Origin: a virus
DNA: 5,801 bases
IMG/VR virus record: IMGVR_UViG_3300045988_010436
Span: 1 to 5,801 of that record
Reading direction: 5' to 3' (one strand)
Shown: piece after piece, positions 1 to 5,801 of the stretch
Numbering within the stretch: the first letter of the stretch is position 1
Layout: every line of letters begins with the position of its first letter
Program-made: the position numbers and the translations under genes
Notes under the pieces: generated by a model
Database searches by the model: none
Seen by the model: only the letters and a program-made list of their open reading frames with translations
Told to the model about the DNA's origin: nothing

Positions 1-119
1 ACGCGGGTCAACTCATTCCATTCTATGTCGATGAGGTGTTACCGGGTGACACATTCAGCATCGACCAAGCCGCAATTATCCGCATGACTACGCCTATCTT
101 CCCGGTTATGGACAACTGC
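1..119. repeat. Terminal direct repeat, left copy: circular-genome assembly overlap identical to 5683-5801.
   Basis: Base-by-base reading shows 1-119 equals 5683-5801. The repeat lies inside the VP1 reading frame and joins it seamlessly. Unit length is 5682 nt. Confidence 0.97.
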
Positions 120-1544
120 CACATGGACATCTACTATTTCAACGTTCCGTGTCGCATCCTCTGGGAGCACTTCAAACGGTTTATGGGCGAGAACGATGAA
201 GGACCGTGGACGCAAACAAACAACTACTACATTCCACAGGTGAGTGTAGTCGGAACAGAAAACAAGCCAGCACCTTATGAAGGGAGCATCATGGACTACA
301 TGGGCATTCCTACAAAGGTGAGCAAAGGAGACAGTACAAAATTCAGCGTTAACGCACTGCCGTTCCGCGCATACGTCATGATTTGGCAGGAATGGTTCAG
401 AGACCAAAATTTAGACAATCCGGCCATCAACAGCACGAAAGACGCAACTGCCATCTACACTGACGATGAGACAAAGGGCATGGACGCAAAAACACCTGAC
501 ATTGAGTATATTCTCCAGAACGCATACACGGGCGGCAGACCGCTGCCGGTAAATAAATACCACGACTACTTCACATCGGCTTTGCCAACCCCTCAGAAAG
601 GGCCGAGTGTGAGTATCCCATTAGAGGGAAACGCCCCAATATTCGGATACAGCGACCACCAAAGAACAAAGATAGGCGATCCATCAGGAGTCAATAATCT
701 CCAAAACCAGAACATACCGCTTGGAATTGTAGGAACAAGCCCACAAAATGTTCCAGTATACCTAGGCGCAAAGATGGATAGAGTAACAGCCGCAACCGTC
801 AATCAGCTGAGACAGGCGTTTCAGGTACAAAAATACTATGAGCAGCTGGCACGCGGTGGCAGCCGTTACCGCGAGATGATTTATTCACTGTTCCATACGA
901 AAATCAGCGATAAAACGGTACAAATCCCAGAGTATCTGGGCGGTACGCGAATCACCATCAACATGAGTCAGGTCATCCAGACCAGCAGCACGACCACCGA
1001 AAGTCCGCAGGGCAACACGGCAGCAATAAGTGTTACGCCGTACAACGGGAGCATATTTACGAAGAGCTTCGAAGAGCACGGCTATGTTATCGGCGTATGC
1101 TGCATCCGACATGACCATACCTACCAGCAGGGCTTGGAGCGCATGTGGAGTCGCAAAACAAATCTGGATTTTTACTATCCTGCGTTTGCAAACTTGGGCG
1201 AGCAGGCCATTCTGAAGAAGGAGCTGTATCTCACTGGTACGAGCACTGATGAGCAGGCCTTTGGTTATCAGGAAGCTTGGGCAGAATACAGGATGAAGCC
1301 GAACCGCATTAGCGGCAAGTTCCGTTCGAATGCAACGGGGACGTTGGACAGCTGGCACTACGGCGACAACTACAAAGAAGTTCCGAGCCTGAGCCAGGCA
1401 TGGATGAAGGAAGGAGACTCCGAGATTCAGAGGACTCTGGCCGTGGATAACGAGCCGCAGTTTATCATGGATACCGTCATCGACAATACGTCTGTAAGAC
1501 CTATGCCTATGTACAGCATCCCGGGTCTCGTAGACCATCACTAA
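1..1544 (+). CDS. VP1: Major capsid protein VP1 (phiX174 F-like), 3' portion. The ORF enters the window already open; the first full codon starts at nt 3 and the true start is ATG 5586 across the circular junction.
   Basis: The frame is open from nt 3 to TAA 1542-1544. The sequence ...NAGQLIPFYVDEVLPGDTFSIDQAAIIRMTTPIFPVMDNCHMDIYYFNVPCRILW... is the conserved N-terminal signature of Microviridae major capsid proteins. Joined to 5586-5682 it gives 1641 nt (546 aa), a typical gokushovirus VP1 size. Confidence 0.96.
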   Translation, partial: AGQLIPFYVDEVLPGDTFSIDQAAIIRMTTPIFPVMDNCHMDIYYFNVPCRILWEHFKRFMGENDEGPWTQTNNYYIPQVSVVGTENKPAPYEGSIMDYMGIPTKVSKGDSTKFSVNALPFRAYVMIWQEWFRDQNLDNPAINSTKDATAIYTDDETKGMDAKTPDIEYILQNAYTGGRPLPVNKYHDYFTSALPTPQKGPSVSIPLEGNAPIFGYSDHQRTKIGDPSGVNNLQNQNIPLGIVGTSPQNVPVYLGAKMDRVTAATVNQLRQAFQVQKYYEQLARGGSRYREMIYSLFHTKISDKTVQIPEYLGGTRITINMSQVIQTSSTTTESPQGNTAAISVTPYNGSIFTKSFEEHGYVIGVCCIRHDHTYQQGLERMWSRKTNLDFYYPAFANLGEQAILKKELYLTGTSTDEQAFGYQEAWAEYRMKPNRISGKFRSNATGTLDSWHYGDNYKEVPSLSQAWMKEGDSEIQRTLAVDNEPQFIMDTVIDNTSVRPMPMYSIPGLVDHH

Positions 1545-1608
1545 AGTATTTCGTTATTGTTATTCTAAAATAGCAATAATATAACGTAACAACGACAAAA
1601 ATAAGAAT

Positions 1609-1633
1609 CCTCAGCTGAGAGTGTCAGCTGAGG
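1609..1633 (+). other. Perfect 10-bp stem / 5-nt loop hairpin in the VP1-VP2 intergenic region.
   Basis: CCTCAGCTGA (1609-1618), loop GAGTG, TCAGCTGAGG (1624-1633). The arms are exact reverse complements and each carries CAGCTG. No T-run follows. Confidence 0.8.
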
Positions 1634-1656
1634 CCTCAACTGACGAAAGGGGGGAA

Positions 1657-1686
1657 GCCCGGGGCAAAACCCCGGGCTATTTTATT
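1657..1686 (+). terminator. Rho-independent terminator-like hairpin after VP1, probably leaky/attenuating.
   Basis: GCCCGGGG (1657-1664), loop CAAAA, CCCCGGGC (1670-1677): a perfect 8-bp all-GC stem followed by TATTTTATT (1678-1686). It ends directly at the VP2 ATG. Confidence 0.6.
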
Positions 1687-2535
1687 ATGGCATTAGCAGC
1701 AATCGGCAGCGCACTACTCGGAATCGGCAAACAACTACTCCCAACAATCGCCGGAGGACTCATAAACAAATTCCTAGGCGGGAATCTGATGGAAAGCAAT
1801 GGGGGGAGCAGTCAGCACAACGAAAGTTCGAGCCAAGGAGGCGGCTACAGCAGCGCCGCCAGCGGCGTAAACCGAGAGCAAAATCTACAAGACTGGAACA
1901 GTATGCTAGGGGCAATTCAAGGCAATATGCAAAGCCAGCAGAAGTTTAACCGTCGGAGCATGTTCGAGCAAATGGGCTATAACACCATGGCAGCAATCAC
2001 TCAGGGTGTATATAACCAGATAAGCAACAACGCAGCGATGAGCTACAACAGCGCAGAAGCAGCCAAAAACAGAGCTTGGCAAGAGCAAATGAGCAATACA
2101 GCTTATCAGCGAGCTGTGGAAGACATGCGAAAAGCTGGCATCAACCCTATCTTAGCATACCAACAGGGCGGAGCGAGCACGCCGGGAGGCGCACAGGGCA
2201 CTATCAGCGGGGCAAGTATGGGTCTCGCAAGCAGCAGTGCGGCGAACGCAAGCGCTCTCGGAGTAAGCCAGAACCACAACAACACATGGAGCAAAAGCGA
2301 AAGTAACTGGTACAACGCAGCACAAGCGGTCGGAGACGCTACAAGCTGGTCCCACACAAGCGCAGACAAAGCGTTTAACGCATTCAAGGACGTCTTCAAC
2401 GACCTCAGCAACCTAAACAGTGGCGTCGGCGGAGGTGTAGGGAGAAAACCAAAAAAAGATGAGCTCGAATACAAACCGGGAAGAGACTTCATTGGAAGCA
2501 AAAACATCGAATTTTGGAAAGGAAAACTTAAATAA
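1687..2535 (+). CDS. VP2: Minor capsid / DNA pilot protein VP2 (phiX174 H analogue), 282 aa.
   Basis: ATG 1687 is in frame with track ORF 1621-2535. The N-terminus is Gly/Ala/Leu-rich (MALAAIGSALLGIGKQLLPTIAGGLINKFLGG). The low-complexity Ser/Gly/Gln/Asn body contains the conserved gokushovirus VP2 block NTAYQRAVEDMRKAGINPILAY. Its position directly after VP1 fits the family. GTG 1621 lies inside the upstream hairpin and has no RBS. Confidence 0.88.
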   Translation: MALAAIGSALLGIGKQLLPTIAGGLINKFLGGNLMESNGGSSQHNESSSQGGGYSSAASGVNREQNLQDWNSMLGAIQGNMQSQQKFNRRSMFEQMGYNTMAAITQGVYNQISNNAAMSYNSAEAAKNRAWQEQMSNTAYQRAVEDMRKAGINPILAYQQGGASTPGGAQGTISGASMGLASSSAANASALGVSQNHNNTWSKSESNWYNAAQAVGDATSWSHTSADKAFNAFKDVFNDLSNLNSGVGGGVGRKPKKDELEYKPGRDFIGSKNIEFWKGKLK

Positions 2536-3555
2536 ATGGGATGCAACAAACCGTTAATCCGGTTTTATGTACCTCATGATAGAGAGGCGAGCGGGCGAGT
2601 ATACTCACTCGCTTCTTTCAACAAAGTTCATAAGACCGAAATGAAATATGAAGACCTGATGTATCGGAAAGATGTAATGATGATTCCTTGTGGACAATGC
2701 ACAGGATGCAAACTACGCAAACGCAAAGACTGGGCCACGCGGATGGAGCTAGAAGCATACAGTCACGACAAGGAAAGCATCTGGTTCATCACACTGACCT
2801 ATGATGACGACCATATACCAACACAGGACACGGAAACAGGAGAAATCTTCAAAGGGGGCGTGAACGTCTGGAAAGACACCTCAGAGCGTCCCAGAACGGT
2901 GCAAACTTTAAGCGTAGAGGATGTCCAGTTATTCATGAAAAGGCTTAGAAAAGCCGTCAGCGGGCCTCTCAGATACTTCCTAGCCGGAGAGTATGGAGAC
3001 AACACCTCAAGACCACACTATCACATGATACTATACGGGTGGTATCCGGACGACTTAGAGCCGATTCACAAACTGTCAAGATTCGGACACTACACGAGCG
3101 ATAAACTAATCAAAGTCTGGGGGCAAGGGACAGTTGACATAGCTCAAGCAACACCAGAGACATATAACTACGTAGCCGGATATGTGACCAAGAAACTATA
3201 CGGAAACGACAAGGACAGGTATAGGAAAATGGGACTCATACCGCCATTCTGCGTAATGAGCCGAAAACCAGGACTCGGAGACGAGTGGTTTCAAAAGAAT
3301 CAAGAAAGGCTATGGCAACTTGGATACATCCAGCTGACAAACGGCAAGAGAGCAGCCATTCCAGAATATTATTGGCGAAAGCTGGAAGCTGAAAATCCTG
3401 AAAAGGCGTGGAGAATAAAGCAGTATCGACAGGAAAAAGCCATTGCATCCCTAATCGAAAGAAACATGGAAACTGACAAACGGTATGCCGAACAACTAGC
3501 CGATAAAGAAGCAATCATGAAGAAGAAGATGTCCAAAGCAAAGGGCGTTTTTTAG
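2536..3555 (+). CDS. VP4: Replication initiation protein VP4 (HUH rolling-circle endonuclease, phiX174 gpA family), 339 aa.
   Basis: The ATG abuts the VP2 stop (TAA-ATG). Cys cluster PCGQCTGCKLRKRKDW; motif 1 FITLTYDD (from nt 2785); HUH motif PHYHMILYG (H-Y-H at 3016-3024); double-tyrosine catalytic motif YVAGYVTKK (compare phiX174 YVAKYVNK). Confidence 0.96.
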   Translation: MGCNKPLIRFYVPHDREASGRVYSLASFNKVHKTEMKYEDLMYRKDVMMIPCGQCTGCKLRKRKDWATRMELEAYSHDKESIWFITLTYDDDHIPTQDTETGEIFKGGVNVWKDTSERPRTVQTLSVEDVQLFMKRLRKAVSGPLRYFLAGEYGDNTSRPHYHMILYGWYPDDLEPIHKLSRFGHYTSDKLIKVWGQGTVDIAQATPETYNYVAGYVTKKLYGNDKDRYRKMGLIPPFCVMSRKPGLGDEWFQKNQERLWQLGYIQLTNGKRAAIPEYYWRKLEAENPEKAWRIKQYRQEKAIASLIERNMETDKRYAEQLADKEAIMKKKMSKAKGVF

Positions 3556-3564
3556 CTCTGGTGT

Positions 3565-3621
3565 CACTCAGCCAAGTAACTATCAAGTATATATACTTGG
3601 CTGAGTGTTTTTTAGTTTTTT
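3565..3621 (+). terminator. Strong rho-independent terminator downstream of VP4.
   Basis: CACTCAGCCAAGTA (3565-3578) pairs perfectly with TACTTGGCTGAGTG (3594-3607): a 14-bp stem with a 15-nt loop. It is followed by TTTTTTAGTTTTTT (3608-3621). The loop region also contains the palindrome CAAGTATATACTTG. Confidence 0.85.
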
Positions 3622-3625
3622 ATCA

Positions 3626-3666
3626 GCGCGCGCGCACGCGCGCATAATTGCGCACGCGCACGCGCG
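3626..3666. repeat. Alternating purine-pyrimidine, almost pure GC imperfect palindrome (cruciform / ssDNA hairpin; Z-DNA-prone).
   Basis: Arms 3627-3644 and 3649-3666 pair at 15 of 18 positions (14 G:C plus 1 A:T; three C/A mismatches) around loop TAAT (3645-3648). Strict Pu-Py alternation runs over 3626-3646 and 3649-3666. The element is flanked by T-rich and AT-rich DNA. Confidence 0.9.
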
Positions 3667-3714
3667 ATTTTTATTATATTATTATTAACTTGTTGTAGTC
3701 GTAGTAGTAGGGAG

Positions 3715-3888
3715 TGTTGAAATGTTGAATACTATGAATTTTTATCCTTGGAACGATATTTTCTGGTTAATTTTGATGTTGATACTTTTGTGGATAACTT
3801 GTTGAATTGTTGAAAGTGTAGCAATATGCACAAAAACCTTTGTGCAACATTTTGTGGAAAACCTGTTGAAAGTGTTGAAAGTGTTGAA
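3715..3888 (+). repeat. Iteron array: seven exact TGTTGAA copies, including three tandem 9-mers.
   Basis: TGTTGAA at 3715, 3723, 3800, 3808, 3864, 3873 and 3882. Tandem TGTTGAAAG TGTTGAAAG TGTTGAAAA spans 3864-3890. Variants are TGTTGAT (3777) and TGTTGTA (3691). A 21-nt direct repeat TTTTGTGGAWAACYTGTTGAA lies at 3786-3806 and 3850-3870 (19/21 identical). Confidence 0.9.
3789..3861 (-). promoter_or_regulatory. Cluster of DnaA-box-like 9-mers.
   Basis: 3789-3797 TGTGGATAA is the reverse complement of the perfect consensus TTATCCACA. 3853-3861 TGTGGAAAA corresponds to TTTTCCACA, which fits TTWTNCACA. There are 8/9 matches at 3824-3832 (ATATGCACA, + strand) and 3841-3849 (TGTGCAACA, - strand). 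These two form the arms of an 8-bp hairpin: TGCACAAA 3827-3834 and TTTGTGCA 3839-3846, loop AACC. Confidence 0.55.
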
Positions 3889-3929
3889 AATGTAATTAGA
3901 GGCAGTTCGGCAGCTGACCGAAAAGTTAC

Positions 3930-3969
3930 GTCATGCTCTTCGTACGGCGCACCGCGCCTAGCGCATGAC
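3930..3969 (+). other. Compound GC-rich stem-loop upstream of the promoter.
   Basis: Outer 7-bp stem: GTCATGC (3930-3936) with GCATGAC (3963-3969). Inner 5-bp stem: GGCGC (3946-3950) with GCGCC (3954-3958), loop ACC. A smaller hairpin sits just upstream: TTCGG (3906-3910), loop CAGCTGA, CCGAA (3918-3922). Confidence 0.65.
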
Positions 3970-3974
3970 CTCTC

Positions 3975-4023
3975 AAAAAAAGTTTCAAAAAACTATTGAC
4001 AAATCTCAAAAGTATGGTATAAT
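3975..4023 (+). promoter_or_regulatory. Near-consensus sigma70-type promoter with extended -10 and an UP-element-like A-tract region.
   Basis: -35 TTGACA (3996-4001), 16-nt spacer, TGg extended motif (4015-4017), -10 TATAAT (4018-4023). A7 (3975-3981) and A6 (3987-3992) tracts lie upstream. Predicted start near 4030, about 20 nt before the ORF at 4050. Confidence 0.8.
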
Positions 4024-4049
4024 ATAATCAAAGAAAGGCGGAGAATAAA

Positions 4050-4247
4050 ATGAGAAAACCACGATTGAGCGAAAACACCATAGGGAAACTCGAAATTTAC
4101 GGACACGCAGAATCCGGAAAAAACTACTACGAACTGAAAGACTACATCGACGCAAAAGGAAAATGTTACACGGTGCTTGAATGGACAAACCTTAAGAACG
4201 GAGATGCAAAACAATTCGATTGGGAAAAATGCACAAAAGAGGCTTGA
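4050..4247 (+). CDS. Orphan 65-aa soluble protein in a stand-alone promoter-ORF-terminator cassette; function unknown.
   Basis: SD GGCGGAGA (4037-4044) lies 5 nt before ATG 4050. The consensus promoter is immediately upstream and a terminator overlaps the stop. The protein is Lys/Glu/Asp- and aromatic-rich, with 2 Cys and no hydrophobic segment. I recognise no family motif. Confidence 0.7.
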   Translation: MRKPRLSENTIGKLEIYGHAESGKNYYELKDYIDAKGKCYTVLEWTNLKNGDAKQFDWEKCTKEA

Positions 4248-4265
4248 CGAGTCTCTTTTTTTTTT
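4235..4265 (+). terminator. Rho-independent terminator of the 65-aa ORF cassette.
   Basis: AAAAGAGGC (4235-4243) pairs with GTCTCTTTT (4251-4259), including one G:U. The loop TTGACGA contains the stop codon. A 10-T run (4256-4265) follows. Confidence 0.65.
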
Positions 4266-4372
4266 ATATACTAAAGGCAATCAAGCAGCACAGAAGTACA
4301 TTTAACAAATTCCATTTTTACAAAATAACATTATGAAAGAGGTGAACTGCTCTGACTCTCCAAGAAATCAAG

Positions 4373-4456
4373 ATGCTGTTTGAAAACATCCAAAAAATCC
4401 TTGCCATGCTGGACAAAATCTACCACGCAGTAACAGGGGACAAACCGGAGGCTTGA
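4373..4456 (+). CDS. Possible 27-aa leader ORF (MLFENIQKILAMLDKIYHAVTGDKPEA); weak call.
   Basis: ATG 4373 to TGA 4454-4456, which ends 1 nt before the ATG of the next ORF. No convincing SD lies upstream, and the ORF is very short. Confidence 0.2.
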   Translation: MLFENIQKILAMLDKIYHAVTGDKPEA

Positions 4457-4457
4457 A

Positions 4458-4685
4458 ATGGAAAACAAACCATGGAATGTAAGAGACCAGACCGACGAGA
4501 ACCTTATGCAAGAGTTGACGAAAACCTACAAGGCAATAGACGCCGCGTACAAAATGGTACGACAGGCAACAAACATCGAAGACGCAAAGTATTATATTGA
4601 CATTGCGTTTAGAAAAAAAGCATCTGCCAGTAACATTGAGGTGGAAATCCTCAGAAGGGAAATCAACCATGGCAAAGAGGAGTAA
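4458..4685 (+). CDS. Orphan 75-aa charged, probably helical protein; function unknown.
   Basis: Strong SD GGAGG (4447-4451) lies 6 nt before ATG 4458. Its 3' end overlaps the J-like gene start by 17 nt, as expected for compact phage organisation. No motif recognised. Confidence 0.6.
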   Translation: MENKPWNVRDQTDENLMQELTKTYKAIDAAYKMVRQATNIEDAKYYIDIAFRKKASASNIEVEILRREINHGKEE

Positions 4686-4788
4686 AGTCCGCAAATCCAA
4701 AGACGCAAAAATCTACAACAAGACCGCACGAAAGACAAAGGCAATCAACCTTGGAAGCGGCGCAATGAGAGGGGGAATCCGACTGTGA
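4669..4788 (+). CDS. Small basic DNA-binding/packaging peptide (phiX174 J / Chlamydia-phage ORF8-like), 39 aa.
   Basis: MAKRSKVRKSKDAKIYNKTARKTKAINLGSGAMRGGIRL has an Arg/Lys-rich N-terminal half and the C-terminal MRGGIRL/F motif that I recall from gokushovirus ORF8-type peptides. ATG 4669 is in frame with track ORF 4597-4788. The upstream ATG 4597 adds a non-basic extension with no RBS. Confidence 0.75.
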   Translation: MAKRSKVRKSKDAKIYNKTARKTKAINLGSGAMRGGIRL

Positions 4789-4883
4789 GTGCTGTATTCG
4801 CAAGCATGACTATGGCATTTCTCGCAGCGGGGTTTTACCTCGTCATTAACACAATCGACATCATCAAAGAATGGTTCAAATAA
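4785..4883 (+). CDS. Unannotated 32-aa hydrophobic (single transmembrane helix) peptide; below the ORF-track size cut-off.
   Basis: GTG 4785 overlaps the J-like stop (GTGA). SD-like AGGGGG (4770-4775) lies 9 nt upstream. The translation is (M)SAVFASMTMAFLAAGFYLVINTIDIIKEWFK. TAA 4881-4883 runs into the next gene's SD (TAAGGAG). The ORF exactly fills the otherwise unexplained 107-nt gap. An alternative in-frame ATG is at 4806. Confidence 0.5.
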   Translation: MSAVFASMTMAFLAAGFYLVINTIDIIKEWFK

Positions 4884-4895
4884 GGAGACAATCAT

Positions 4896-5132
4896 ATGAA
4901 CGTATACGGAATTTTCGATAAATGCGTGATGGGCTATATCACCATCTTTACCGAACGTGACGACAAGGTGGCCGAACGCAATTTCAAAATCGCACTGACC
5001 GATGACCGGAATATCATGAGCAAGACTCCGAACGACTATCGGTTGGTGCGCCTGGCAAAGTTTGACGAGAAAACGGGCCTGTTTGAGAACGAAAAGGAGA
5101 ACATCTTCGATGGCGTATCGCTCAGTAAGTAA
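4896..5132 (+). CDS. VP5: VP5-like non-structural protein of gokushoviruses, 78 aa.
   Basis: SD AAGGAG (4882-4887) lies 8 nt before the ATG. The pattern MNVYGIFDK...ERNFKIAL...TPNDYRLVRLAKFDEKTGLF matches my recollection of the conserved Y.I.D / A.R.F / P.DY.L...G.FD..TG layout of VP5-type proteins. Its position just upstream of VP3 also fits. Confidence 0.7.
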   Translation: MNVYGIFDKCVMGYITIFTERDDKVAERNFKIALTDDRNIMSKTPNDYRLVRLAKFDEKTGLFENEKENIFDGVSLSK

Positions 5133-5589
5133 TTTCAGAGAGACTACAATAGCAAAACCCACCGAAGCCGGAGAGACCGTGAGGCGCACATACCTCTGGG
5201 AACTCAACGAGAAAGGCGAAAAGGTGCTAACGCTTGACCAGATCATCGACCAGCAGGCGGAAATCGACAGCTTCCTTGAAGAAACCAAGCTGGAAAACAT
5301 CATCCGGCGAGCATCCATCGACCCTGACATTGCAGCTAGGCTGATGCCGGATATGGGCGGTGGACTCCAGGACGCAACCGACATGCCGGAGAATCTGATG
5401 GAGCTCCAAAACATCATGCTCCGAGCAGAACAAATCTGGGATGAAATCCCGAAAGAAATCAAGCTCAAGTTTGACAATGACGTTGACAAGTTTGTCGCAA
5501 GCTTCGGCACTGTTGACTGGGCGAAGAATCTGGGCATTTATCAGGAAAAGCAGCCTGAAGAGCCTAAAAAAGAGGAGACCGCTGAATGA
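5110..5589 (+). CDS. VP3: Internal scaffolding protein VP3, 159 aa.
   Basis: SD AAGGAGA (5094-5100) lies 9 nt before ATG 5110, in frame with track ORF 5062-5589. The protein is acidic and helical, with a C-terminal block IPKEIKLKFDNDVDKFVASF typical of gokushovirus scaffold proteins. The stop overlaps the VP1 start (ATGA at 5586-5589). Confidence 0.82.
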   Translation: MAYRSVSNFRETTIAKPTEAGETVRRTYLWELNEKGEKVLTLDQIIDQQAEIDSFLEETKLENIIRRASIDPDIAARLMPDMGGGLQDATDMPENLMELQNIMLRAEQIWDEIPKEIKLKFDNDVDKFVASFGTVDWAKNLGIYQEKQPEEPKKEETAE

Positions 5590-5801
5590 ACAGAAACAAA
5601 GATGCAGGATTCAACCAGGTACCACGGCTGGACATTACGCGAAGTCGCTTCAAACGGCGGCAGGACGTCAAGCTAACGATGAACGCGGGTCAACTCATTC
5701 CATTCTATGTCGATGAGGTGTTACCGGGTGACACATTCAGCATCGACCAAGCCGCAATTATCCGCATGACTACGCCTATCTTCCCGGTTATGGACAACTG
5801 C
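5586..5801 (+). CDS. VP1: Major capsid protein VP1, 5' portion (start codon to window end); 5683-5801 duplicates 1-119.
   Basis: SD GAGGAG (5570-5575) lies upstream of ATG 5586. The translation MNRNKDAGFNQVPRLDITRSRFKRRQDVKLTMNAGQLIPFYVDEVLPGDTF... is the canonical Microviridae capsid N-terminus. It continues in frame into nt 3 of the window through the overlap. Confidence 0.95.
   Translation, partial: MNRNKDAGFNQVPRLDITRSRFKRRQDVKLTMNAGQLIPFYVDEVLPGDTFSIDQAAIIRMTTPIFPVMDNC
5683..5801. repeat. Terminal direct repeat, right copy (assembly overlap of the circular genome).
   Basis: Identical to 1-119. Confidence 0.97.

Follow-up and report, generated by a model that had tools for sequence, protein, structure and literature searches.

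Morons, units made of a promoter, one small gene and a factor-independent terminator, have reportedly been described in lambdoid and other tailed phages (Juhala et al. 2000; Hendrix et al. 2000). In integrons, a common promoter, Pc, drives unrelated cargo genes whose number and order vary from one array to another. Promoter-coupled terminators carry a -35 element in the DNA of the stem-loop and a -10 element directly after the T-tract (Fletcher et al., bioRxiv 10.64898/2026.08.19.745784), and anti-defence genes of archaeal viruses were located by means of a strong, conserved promoter that precedes small and variable open reading frames (ORFs) (PMC11065993). As for gokushoviruses, Kirchberger et al. 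2021 (PNAS), as cited in later papers, describes a defensive hypervariable region of gokushovirus prophages that is located inside the VP2 gene. According to the main survey of microvirus diversity (PMC9239249), microviruses have few accessory genes, and proteins of ~65 amino acids (aa) are left unassigned; a slot of the kind considered below is not described there. Here, we analyse a cassette located at positions 3975-4265 of IMG/VR virus record IMGVR_UViG_3300045988_010436 (positions 1 to 5,801; this whole stretch of 5,801 nucleotides (nt), a gokushovirus genome that is essentially complete and encodes all its genes on the plus strand, is referred to as the window). The original prediction, made from the letters of this DNA, described the cassette as a moron-like unit encoding a 65-aa protein, ORF65. 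We consider it probable that the cassette is an autonomous accessory-gene unit that occupies a hypervariable cargo slot in a clade of gut gokushoviruses, next to a suspected origin region.

The elements from which the cassette had been predicted, i.e., a TTGACA-16-TGgTATAAT promoter, upstream A-tracts, a 65-aa ORF and a hairpin followed by ten thymines that overlaps the stop codon, are all present. Promoter P1 (3996-4023; this and the other parts of the locus are on the plus strand) consists of a -35 element TTGACA at 3996-4001, a 16-nt spacer and an extended -10 element TGgTATAAT at 4015-4023, with TG at 4015-4016 and TATAAT at 4018-4023. Of the 11 promoter-like sites detected in the window, it alone matches at 12/12 positions, in line with its original description as the strongest-looking promoter of the genome. 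The exact pattern occurred in none of 200 dinucleotide-preserving shuffles, and in ~22 relatives the P1 hexamers are conserved and the spacer is variable. Two A-tracts read from the sequence (3975-3981 and 3987-3992, together spanning 3975-3992, or about -55 to -38) lie at the position of an UP element and may function as one; the proximal tract, CAAAAAAC, is kept in most promoters of the type found in the window. Transcription from P1 is predicted to start at ~4030-4031. The short leader that follows (4030-4049), ATAATCAAAGAAAGG, is nearly invariant among ORF65-bearing relatives and contains the predicted Shine-Dalgarno (SD) sequence, GGAG (4040-4043), separated by 6 nt from the start codon (ATG, 4050); the spacing of 5 nt that had been given for it is obtained only if the element is read as GGAGA. 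ORF65 (4050-4247, 65 aa) runs into an intrinsic terminator, T1 (4235-4265), with stem arms at 4235-4244 and 4250-4259 and a T10 tract at 4256-4265, so that the stop codon TGA (4245-4247) sits in the loop of the terminator hairpin. The GC content of the cassette is 0.38-0.41 vs 0.40-0.455 in adjacent genes, and its composition is therefore not deviant. A scan of the cassette with Rfam returned nothing. The idea that P1 is a single-strand hairpin promoter similar to the minus-strand origin of M13 was rejected because there is no inverted repeat around P1. A census of the promoter pattern (a scan of viral contigs with AAAAACTMTTGACAAAT) was too unspecific, retrieving mostly unrelated large phages, and was not used.

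Relatives of the window were retrieved via the replication initiator VP4, i.e., independently of ORF65, which yielded 27 contigs with VP4 proteins 81-96% identical to that of the window (relatives are denoted by L numbers below). All 27 share the left flank ...GCGCACCGCGCCTAGCGCATGAC (3947-3969), identical or nearly identical among them, and then diverge, with sequences splitting directly 3' of this flank or one base later. The end of the conserved non-coding block (the base that follows it in the window is C) is thus the left border of the variable slot. Beyond this border, three relatives (L002, L006 and L020) carry ORF65, six carry ORF65 relics, 17 carry other cargo and one carries none, which leaves 24 of the 27 without an intact ORF65. 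The original statement that nothing like the cassette belongs to the core gokushovirus gene set is supported.

The other cargo consists of small ORFs of 55-71 aa that occur singly or in pairs. With ORF65 and its homologues referred to as family F1, the 17 relatives contain members of families F2 (61 aa, 'MLHxYEIR...'), F3 (55-60 aa, Cys-rich), F4 (56-62 aa, acidic, 'MxYDVRF...') and F5 (59 aa, '...RLSxxAL...DPENWVEQ'); a further family, F6 (71 aa), is located upstream of ORF65 in L020, L021 and L023. None of the five families F2-F6 has a match in Pfam or PHROGs. A homology between ORF65 and F5 that was suspected by eye (RLSxxxxxxL...W) was not borne out by hhalign (probability 0.9%, E = 0.06). 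In the 52 loci compared, the slot holds no, one or two ORFs, and the pairs observed are F2+F1, F1+F2, F1+F4, F6+F1, F2+F3 and F5+F4. Since both F2+F1 and F1+F2 occur, among other pairs, the order of genes in the slot has been shuffled. By this census, at least six unrelated families of small proteins, that of ORF65 included, occur at one fixed slot, and ORF65 is an accessory rather than a core gene.

Two versions of the promoter precede the cargo, type A, TTGACAAAT...TGGTATAAT, which is that of the window, and type B, CTTGACT-17-TGGTACAAT. Type A promoters serve several cargos: F2 in MG945657, F5+F4 in KT264790 and F3 in L165. The similarity of KT264790.1 to the window ends at 4023, the last base of the -10 element, after which there are two different ORFs and a terminator of the same type. 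A view of the cassette as a foreign insertion with private borders is not supported: the P1 type and the terminator are a clade-wide framework of the slot that also serves no fewer than five further cargo families.

The six relatives with ORF65 relics have VP4 proteins 94-95% identical to that of the window, and the extent of their deletions can be given, approximately, in window positions. L024 has lost 3980-4160 and retains the last 90 nt of ORF65 (97% aa identity); L152 has lost 3979-4195 and retains about the last 50 nt; L149 has lost 3980-4226 and retains about the last 20 nt. In L156 (4005-4205) and in L158 and L159, which share one deletion (4005-4215) found in two different datasets, the -35 box and the 3' end of ORF65 are left. 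To judge from their breakpoints, the slot deletions are five independent events. The single empty slot, that of L166, is derived from a type B ancestor, and L153 has an internal deletion in F2. The expectation that relatives lacking the cassette would be cut exactly at its promoter and terminator borders was not confirmed: different internal breakpoints or replacements of the cargo were observed instead. The T1 element was intact after every deletion. Because ORF65 and P1 were repeatedly deleted in relatives and the terminator was always kept, ORF65 and P1 are, as far as the genomes compared can tell, dispensable in nature, and the terminator element is not.

The cassette has also moved between lineages. 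A second ORF65-bearing lineage (L003 and L009-L018) is deeply diverged from the window in its core genes (VP1 43-60%, VP2 39-44%, VP4 42-43%, VP5 27-31% and VP3 33-36% identity), whereas the ORF65 proteins are 68-78% identical. In L009-L012 and L017, the sole long nucleotide match to the window begins at 3631 or 3679 and ends between 4226 and 4279. The block common to the window and this lineage, 3631/3679-4279, is 74-87% identical at the nucleotide level and comprises the conserved non-coding region, P1, ORF65 and, in most cases, the terminator with the promoter candidate P2 that overlaps it (see below); in four of these five genomes, it stops just 3' of the -10 element of P2. In L018, 3679-4242 is 87% identical to the window, and the rest of the genome is 65-70% identical. 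A third lineage (L025 and L026; VP1 ~40% identical) shares with the window solely the non-coding block and 3989-4081, a stretch that covers the promoter, the leader and roughly ten codons at the start of ORF65. Since the block is shared between lineages with deeply diverged core genes, the cassette and the adjoining conserved non-coding block are best described, on these alignments, as a recombining module. The base composition gave no sign of a foreign origin of the cassette, and searches of 185,579 species genomes with ORF65 and VP4 found no relative or prophage copy. An acquisition from the host or from a tailed phage thus finds no support in a composition that is not deviant and in homologues that occur only in microviruses; nor, with no prophage copy in the genomes searched, was a basis found for the suggestion that the cassette is expressed independently of the lytic programme.

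The terminator itself has a feature that the original prediction had missed: it is apparently also the next promoter. The RNA hairpin of T1 folds with -10.9 kcal/mol (z = -3.1), and none of 200 shuffles folded as well. When 22 distinct sequences are compared, pairing holds in 95.5% of cells, and compensatory changes are found in seven of the ten pairs, the stem being represented by GAGGC/GCCTC, GGGGC/GCCCC, CCCGG/CCGGG, GGGAC/GTCC and GCGAGA/TCTC, among others. This covariation was matched by none of 500 shuffles and was far lower in slid controls. The candidate promoter P2 (4244-4272), which overlaps T1, has its -35 element TTGACG (4244-4249) in the hairpin, a 17-nt spacer and a -10 element TATACT (4267-4272), a 10/12 match. 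As can be seen from the alignment, TTGAC, formed by the loop and the 3' arm, is invariant in all 22 distinct hairpins, and it is the remaining stem that covaries. In most relatives, a -10-like hexamer (TATACT, TACAAT, TAAAAT, TATAAT, TATAAC, etc.) follows the T-tract, ~15-18 nt after the TTGAC hexamer. We therefore consider T1 to be probably also a second, terminator-coupled promoter, and T1/P2 survives every slot deletion, as would be expected if it is the promoter that serves the genes downstream. In our reading, P2, with T1 providing its -35 element and spacer, would drive ORF34, ORF75, a VP8-like ORF, VP5 and VP3 and perhaps genes beyond. In most relatives, a further small hairpin with a T-run (AGCAC-AAAA-GTGCT-TTTTTT) is located ~25 nt 3' of P2; it is degenerate in the window (GCACAGAAGTAC, within 4280-4330). 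This second hairpin may be an attenuator or a stabiliser in the P2 leader.

ORF65 had been called an orphan. This does not hold, since 53 homologue clusters with 65-97% identity were found, even though the family is unannotated; where the homologues are located on long contigs, these are all microvirus-sized (~5.3-7.1 kb). Codons 1-58 are uninterrupted in all 17 aligned full-length copies; premature stops occur solely within the final seven codons, and proteins of 58-60 aa are found as natural variants. The median pairwise ratio of nonsynonymous to synonymous substitution rates (dN/dS) is 0.35, with a mean dS of 0.60, so that the relatives display the coding pattern of substitutions that had been proposed as a check. 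The other two plus-strand frames contain many stops across relatives. Overprinted or antisense genes in the cassette were considered and rejected: all three minus-strand frames are broken in most or all relatives, and the minus-strand ORF that is open in the window is not conserved. With 53 homologue clusters, a dN/dS of 0.35, codons 1-58 free of stops and the other five frames rich in them, ORF65 is, by its pattern of evolution, a real, selected protein-coding gene.

Just as the original reader had recognised no motif in the protein, no match to ORF65 was found in Pfam, PHROGs, NCBIfam or PADLOC, and a sequence-profile search of PDB returned no matches at E <= 10; Pfam and PHROGs likewise contained no microvirus structural protein that matches it. 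Only one GenBank phage record, KT264788.1, contains ORF65, which is not annotated there. A HMMER profile scan of 1.84 billion representatives gave 11 matches, all but one of them small microvirus-type proteins. The remaining one, P0054, is a 2647-aa repeat protein in which 24 weak stretches match positions 8-30 of the profile, and it was discarded as a spurious summation over repeats. The searches point to a new protein family restricted to microviruses.

AlphaFold2, run with an alignment of 31 sequences, predicts a four-stranded antiparallel beta-meander (strands 12-22, 25-33, 39-47 and 53-57) followed by a short C-terminal helix, with a mean predicted local distance difference test (pLDDT) score of 77. 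A Foldseek search of PDB with this model gave nothing significant (best E = 0.14), and in BFVD, the model matched solely a member of its own family, A0A8S5MPS6. The protein had been described as soluble and charged; it is hydrophilic, with no membrane or hydrophobic segment, and its net charge is near neutral (isoelectric point (pI) 7.7). Disorder is predicted for the ten N-terminal residues (pLDDT 52), even though they belong to the best conserved ones of the protein: M1, P4 and L6 never vary, K3, N9 and T10 are nearly invariant, and a PRL(N/S) core is retained in very divergent members (P0063, L025 and L026). Since this tail is disordered yet conserved, MRKPRL(N/S) may be a docking motif.

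In the mechanism that we propose, host RNA polymerase of the sigma-70 type would initiate at P1 (~4030) on the double-stranded replicative form and synthesise a monocistronic RNA of ~230 nt that ends at T1, at ~4260-4265. The strong SD sequence would then direct translation of the soluble, beta-rich 65-aa protein, and the cargo located between P1 and T1 is exchangeable. We infer both these transcript ends and a high, constitutive expression of ORF65. Since no temporal regulation is known to us in phiX174-type phages, calling P1 'early', as in the original prediction, is unsafe.

ORF65 can be dispensed with, has diversified, yields a soluble protein and is expected to be highly expressed; on these grounds, it most likely acts as a dispensable soluble effector that binds a target in the host or in a rival phage. 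The locus shows the behaviour expected in an arms race, and small, diverse ORFs preceded by a conserved strong promoter are a recognised mark of anti-defence genes (PMC11065993); for these reasons, we tentatively favour counter-defence or host takeover as the role of ORF65, at a confidence that falls a little short of even, this being the weakest step of our reading. A bolder proposal, which we find rather doubtful, is that the P1-cargo-T1/P2 slot as a whole is a platform dedicated to counter-defence or competition, in which each of the at least six families, exchanged by recombination, would be a new inhibitor of host immunity or of rival phages and ORF65 would dock via its PRL(N/S) tail.

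A different view of the transcription units is that P1 is the principal promoter of the whole genome, that ORF65 is the first gene of a polycistronic transcript and that T1 is a leaky attenuator that tunes the levels of downstream genes. Leaky terminators are known in phiX174. It is true that all genes are on one strand, that P1 is the only perfect consensus promoter and that P2, with its 10/12 match, has a poor -10 element in some relatives. However, P1 is destroyed or absent in the six relic-bearing genomes L024, L149, L152, L156, L158 and L159 and in L166, which has an empty slot; all of these have complete-looking core genes and have kept T1/P2. In addition, T1 is a canonical hairpin with a T10 tract and covaries, and the invariant TTGAC within the covarying stem is not explained by stem pairing alone. 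We consider this arrangement unlikely.

ORF65 could also be directed at co-infecting microviruses rather than at host immunity, through superinfection exclusion or other inter-phage competition. Such conflict between phages would be expected to leave a hypervariable, lineage-specific locus, which is what we observe, and according to Kirchberger et al. 2021, as cited in later papers, microviruses do use hypervariable regions for superinfection exclusion. The system described there is located inside the pilot protein VP2 and not in the slot, ORF65 has no membrane segment, and no sign of lysogeny was found in the species genomes searched. The chance that exclusion of other phages is the role of ORF65 thus appears small.

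The topology of the ORF65 model, beta-beta-beta-beta-alpha, and the proximity of the gene to the putative origin region could suggest that ORF65 binds nucleic acids and aids replication or packaging, for instance as a PUR/Whirly-like binder of single-stranded DNA (ssDNA), useful if not strictly essential. Repeats of PUR-alpha are, in fact, among the top PDB matches (TMq 0.53-0.59), but with Foldseek E values of 0.3-1.4, i.e., not significant. The C-terminal helix has only ~6 residues and is truncated in the natural 58-60-aa variants, the protein is near neutral, and it is replaced in relatives by unrelated proteins that include an acidic (pI 4.4) and a Cys-rich one, all of which makes a helper of this kind improbable. 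Finally, ORF65 can hardly be an essential lysis or assembly protein whose absence from some contigs would reflect faulty assembly or defective genomes: no assigned lysis gene is known in gokushoviruses and the expression of ORF65 looks high, but there are five different deletions, one of them in two datasets, unrelated cargo takes its place in 17 close relatives, and the protein has neither a transmembrane segment nor a match to structural proteins.

The reading that we favour, that of an accessory cassette in a cargo slot, has points against it as well. The genomes with deletions are metagenome assemblies and could be defective ones propagated by a helper. The dN/dS of ORF65 indicates moderate constraint only, and no homology or fold match backs a function of the protein, the best Foldseek E value being that given above. 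P2 may be weak, since in some relatives its -10 hexamer lacks the final T (TATAAC, TACAAA) and its spacer ranges from 15 to 18 nt, and read-through from P1 into the core genes may be possible.

The slot adjoins a conserved non-coding island at 3631-3971, which is part of a stretch of ~490 nt (3556-4049) with no credible gene. Conservation is highest at 3776-3890, which is 83-88% identical at the nucleotide level in gokushovirus genomes that otherwise have no megablast-level match to the window. The island contains iterons, TGTTGAAAGTG, at 9-nt spacing (3805-3898) and repeats TTTTGTGGA(T/A)AAC(T/C)TGTTGAA with an AACTTG core, which we take to be reminiscent of the nick region of the phiX174 origin. 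A (GC/GCAC)n tract is located at 3626-3666 and a 19-bp hairpin at 3565-3607. An Rfam scan found no family that matches the island. It is probably a replication origin region and a recombination hotspot. A 57-aa ORF (MHKNLCATFCGKPVESVESVEN..., 3826-3999) covers the iterons and extends into P1; relatives change frame after the VESVE repeat (...RGSSAAGRKVTSCSS... vs ...RGRPASKTEKSRHALRTAHRA), L160 reads this region in yet another frame, and the ORF has a weak PHROG match (E = 0.033). By its changing frames, it is probably not a gene.

The rest of the genome has the following organization. VP1 (36-1544; Phage_F, E = 1.6e-137), the pilot protein VP2 (1621-2535) and the replication initiator VP4 (2536-3555) precede the non-coding stretch. 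Downstream of the cassette there are ORF34 (4352-4456), an unannotated, conserved 34-aa ORF (LTLQEIKMLFENIQKILAMLDKIYHAVTGDKPEA), ORF75 (4458-4685; 75 aa), a basic VP8-like ORF that ends at 4788 (phrog_10695), VP5 (4896-5132) and the scaffold protein VP3 (5062-5589). In GenBank, the window is closest, with 80-84% nucleotide identity, to 'Microviridae sp.' and 'Gokushovirus WZ-2015a' records from human and pig faeces. The first codon of ORF34 is an invariant CTG in 27 loci, including the window, and is located 6-7 nt 3' of a strong SD sequence (AAGAGGTG or AGGAGGTG). Since the internal Met is exchanged for Ala or Thr in many relatives, ORF34 likely initiates at this CTG or at another non-ATG codon.

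Three observations were made elsewhere in these genomes. In a comparison across L004-L168, among the relatives with VP4 81-96% identical to that of the window, VP2 identity is largely bimodal, ~49-54% or ~80-97% with few intermediates, which, as far as these comparisons go, indicates module exchange in the pilot protein and agrees with the published hypervariable region of gokushovirus VP2. In L164 (IMGVR_UViG_3300045988_004590), the ORF75 homologue is broken by an insert ~1100-1240 nt 3' of the VP4 stop codon that translates to ...LIHISEPTRPSVSW... and MCIRDRH..., presumably a signature of contamination with sequencing adaptors; if this signature holds, the insert would be an assembly artefact in a public contig. 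Lastly, the anti-hemB small RNA of Rfam has a sub-threshold match at 1608-1685 (23.6 bits vs a gathering score of 49.5; E = 0.029). Two strong hairpins that resemble terminators are located between VP1 and VP2 and overlap this match, which is most likely a chance likeness to a terminator hairpin.

How does this locus compare with the systems described above? It resembles morons in that a promoter, one small gene and a factor-independent terminator form a self-contained unit, recognised here at the level of sequence, that some genomes possess and close relatives lack at the position between the same two flanking genes, that is common to otherwise diverged genomes and that is non-essential. It differs from them in having no compositional anomaly, in that no prophage state of the phages that carry it was found in the 185,579 species genomes, and in that its promoter and terminator belong to a fixed slot reused by many cargo types; moreover, its absences are secondary deletions with relics or replacements rather than clean empty sites. 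The original comparison with morons is thus apt with regard to an autonomous unit, its presence or absence and its transfer between lineages, and not with regard to private borders and a deviant composition.

With the region reported by Kirchberger et al. the slot has in common that it is a hypervariable gokushovirus locus linked to conflict, but it is a separate intergenic cassette (3975-4272) between VP4, which ends at 3555, and VP5, which starts at 4896. The anti-defence genes of archaeal viruses and anti-CRISPR (Acr) genes offer an analogy only: in the slot, too, a conserved regulatory sequence precedes diverse small ORFs of unknown fold and fast turnover, whereas the cassette contains no known Acr, Aca or other anti-defence homologue and no helix-turn-helix regulator. 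If the cargo indeed consists of anti-defence or anti-competitor proteins, even ssDNA phages of 5.8 kb keep an arms-race locus.

As in integrons, a fixed promoter in the slot serves unrelated small genes in variable number and order, but there is neither an integrase nor an attC-like repeat at the cargo junctions, and the junctions coincide with the -10 hexamer and with the stem of the terminator. What these genomes offer is a bounded position, in a gokushovirus clade common in the human and pig gut, where small accessory genes gather that are, on paper, strongly expressed, and that are shuffled, lost and passed between diverged lineages. ORF65 and no fewer than five further families are thereby shortlisted as candidate effectors, in a genome small enough to be synthesised and with natural deletions as controls.

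Our literature searches, whose coverage was incomplete and which are no proof of absence, found no description of a cargo slot in Microviridae. The kind of element, an accessory cassette, is already known, and a slot with a promoter-coupled terminator appears to be undescribed in this family. T1/P2 is similar to the promoter-coupled terminators of Fletcher et al. in being an intrinsic terminator with a -35 element inside the stem-loop and a -10 element just after the T-tract, so that termination and the next initiation are predicted to occur within ~35 bp. That work deals with bacterial chromosomes and mapped RNA ends, whereas T1/P2 was recognised in a 5.8-kb ssDNA phage from its sequence alone; it would illustrate, in a phage found in nature, how a terminator can serve as the next promoter as well.

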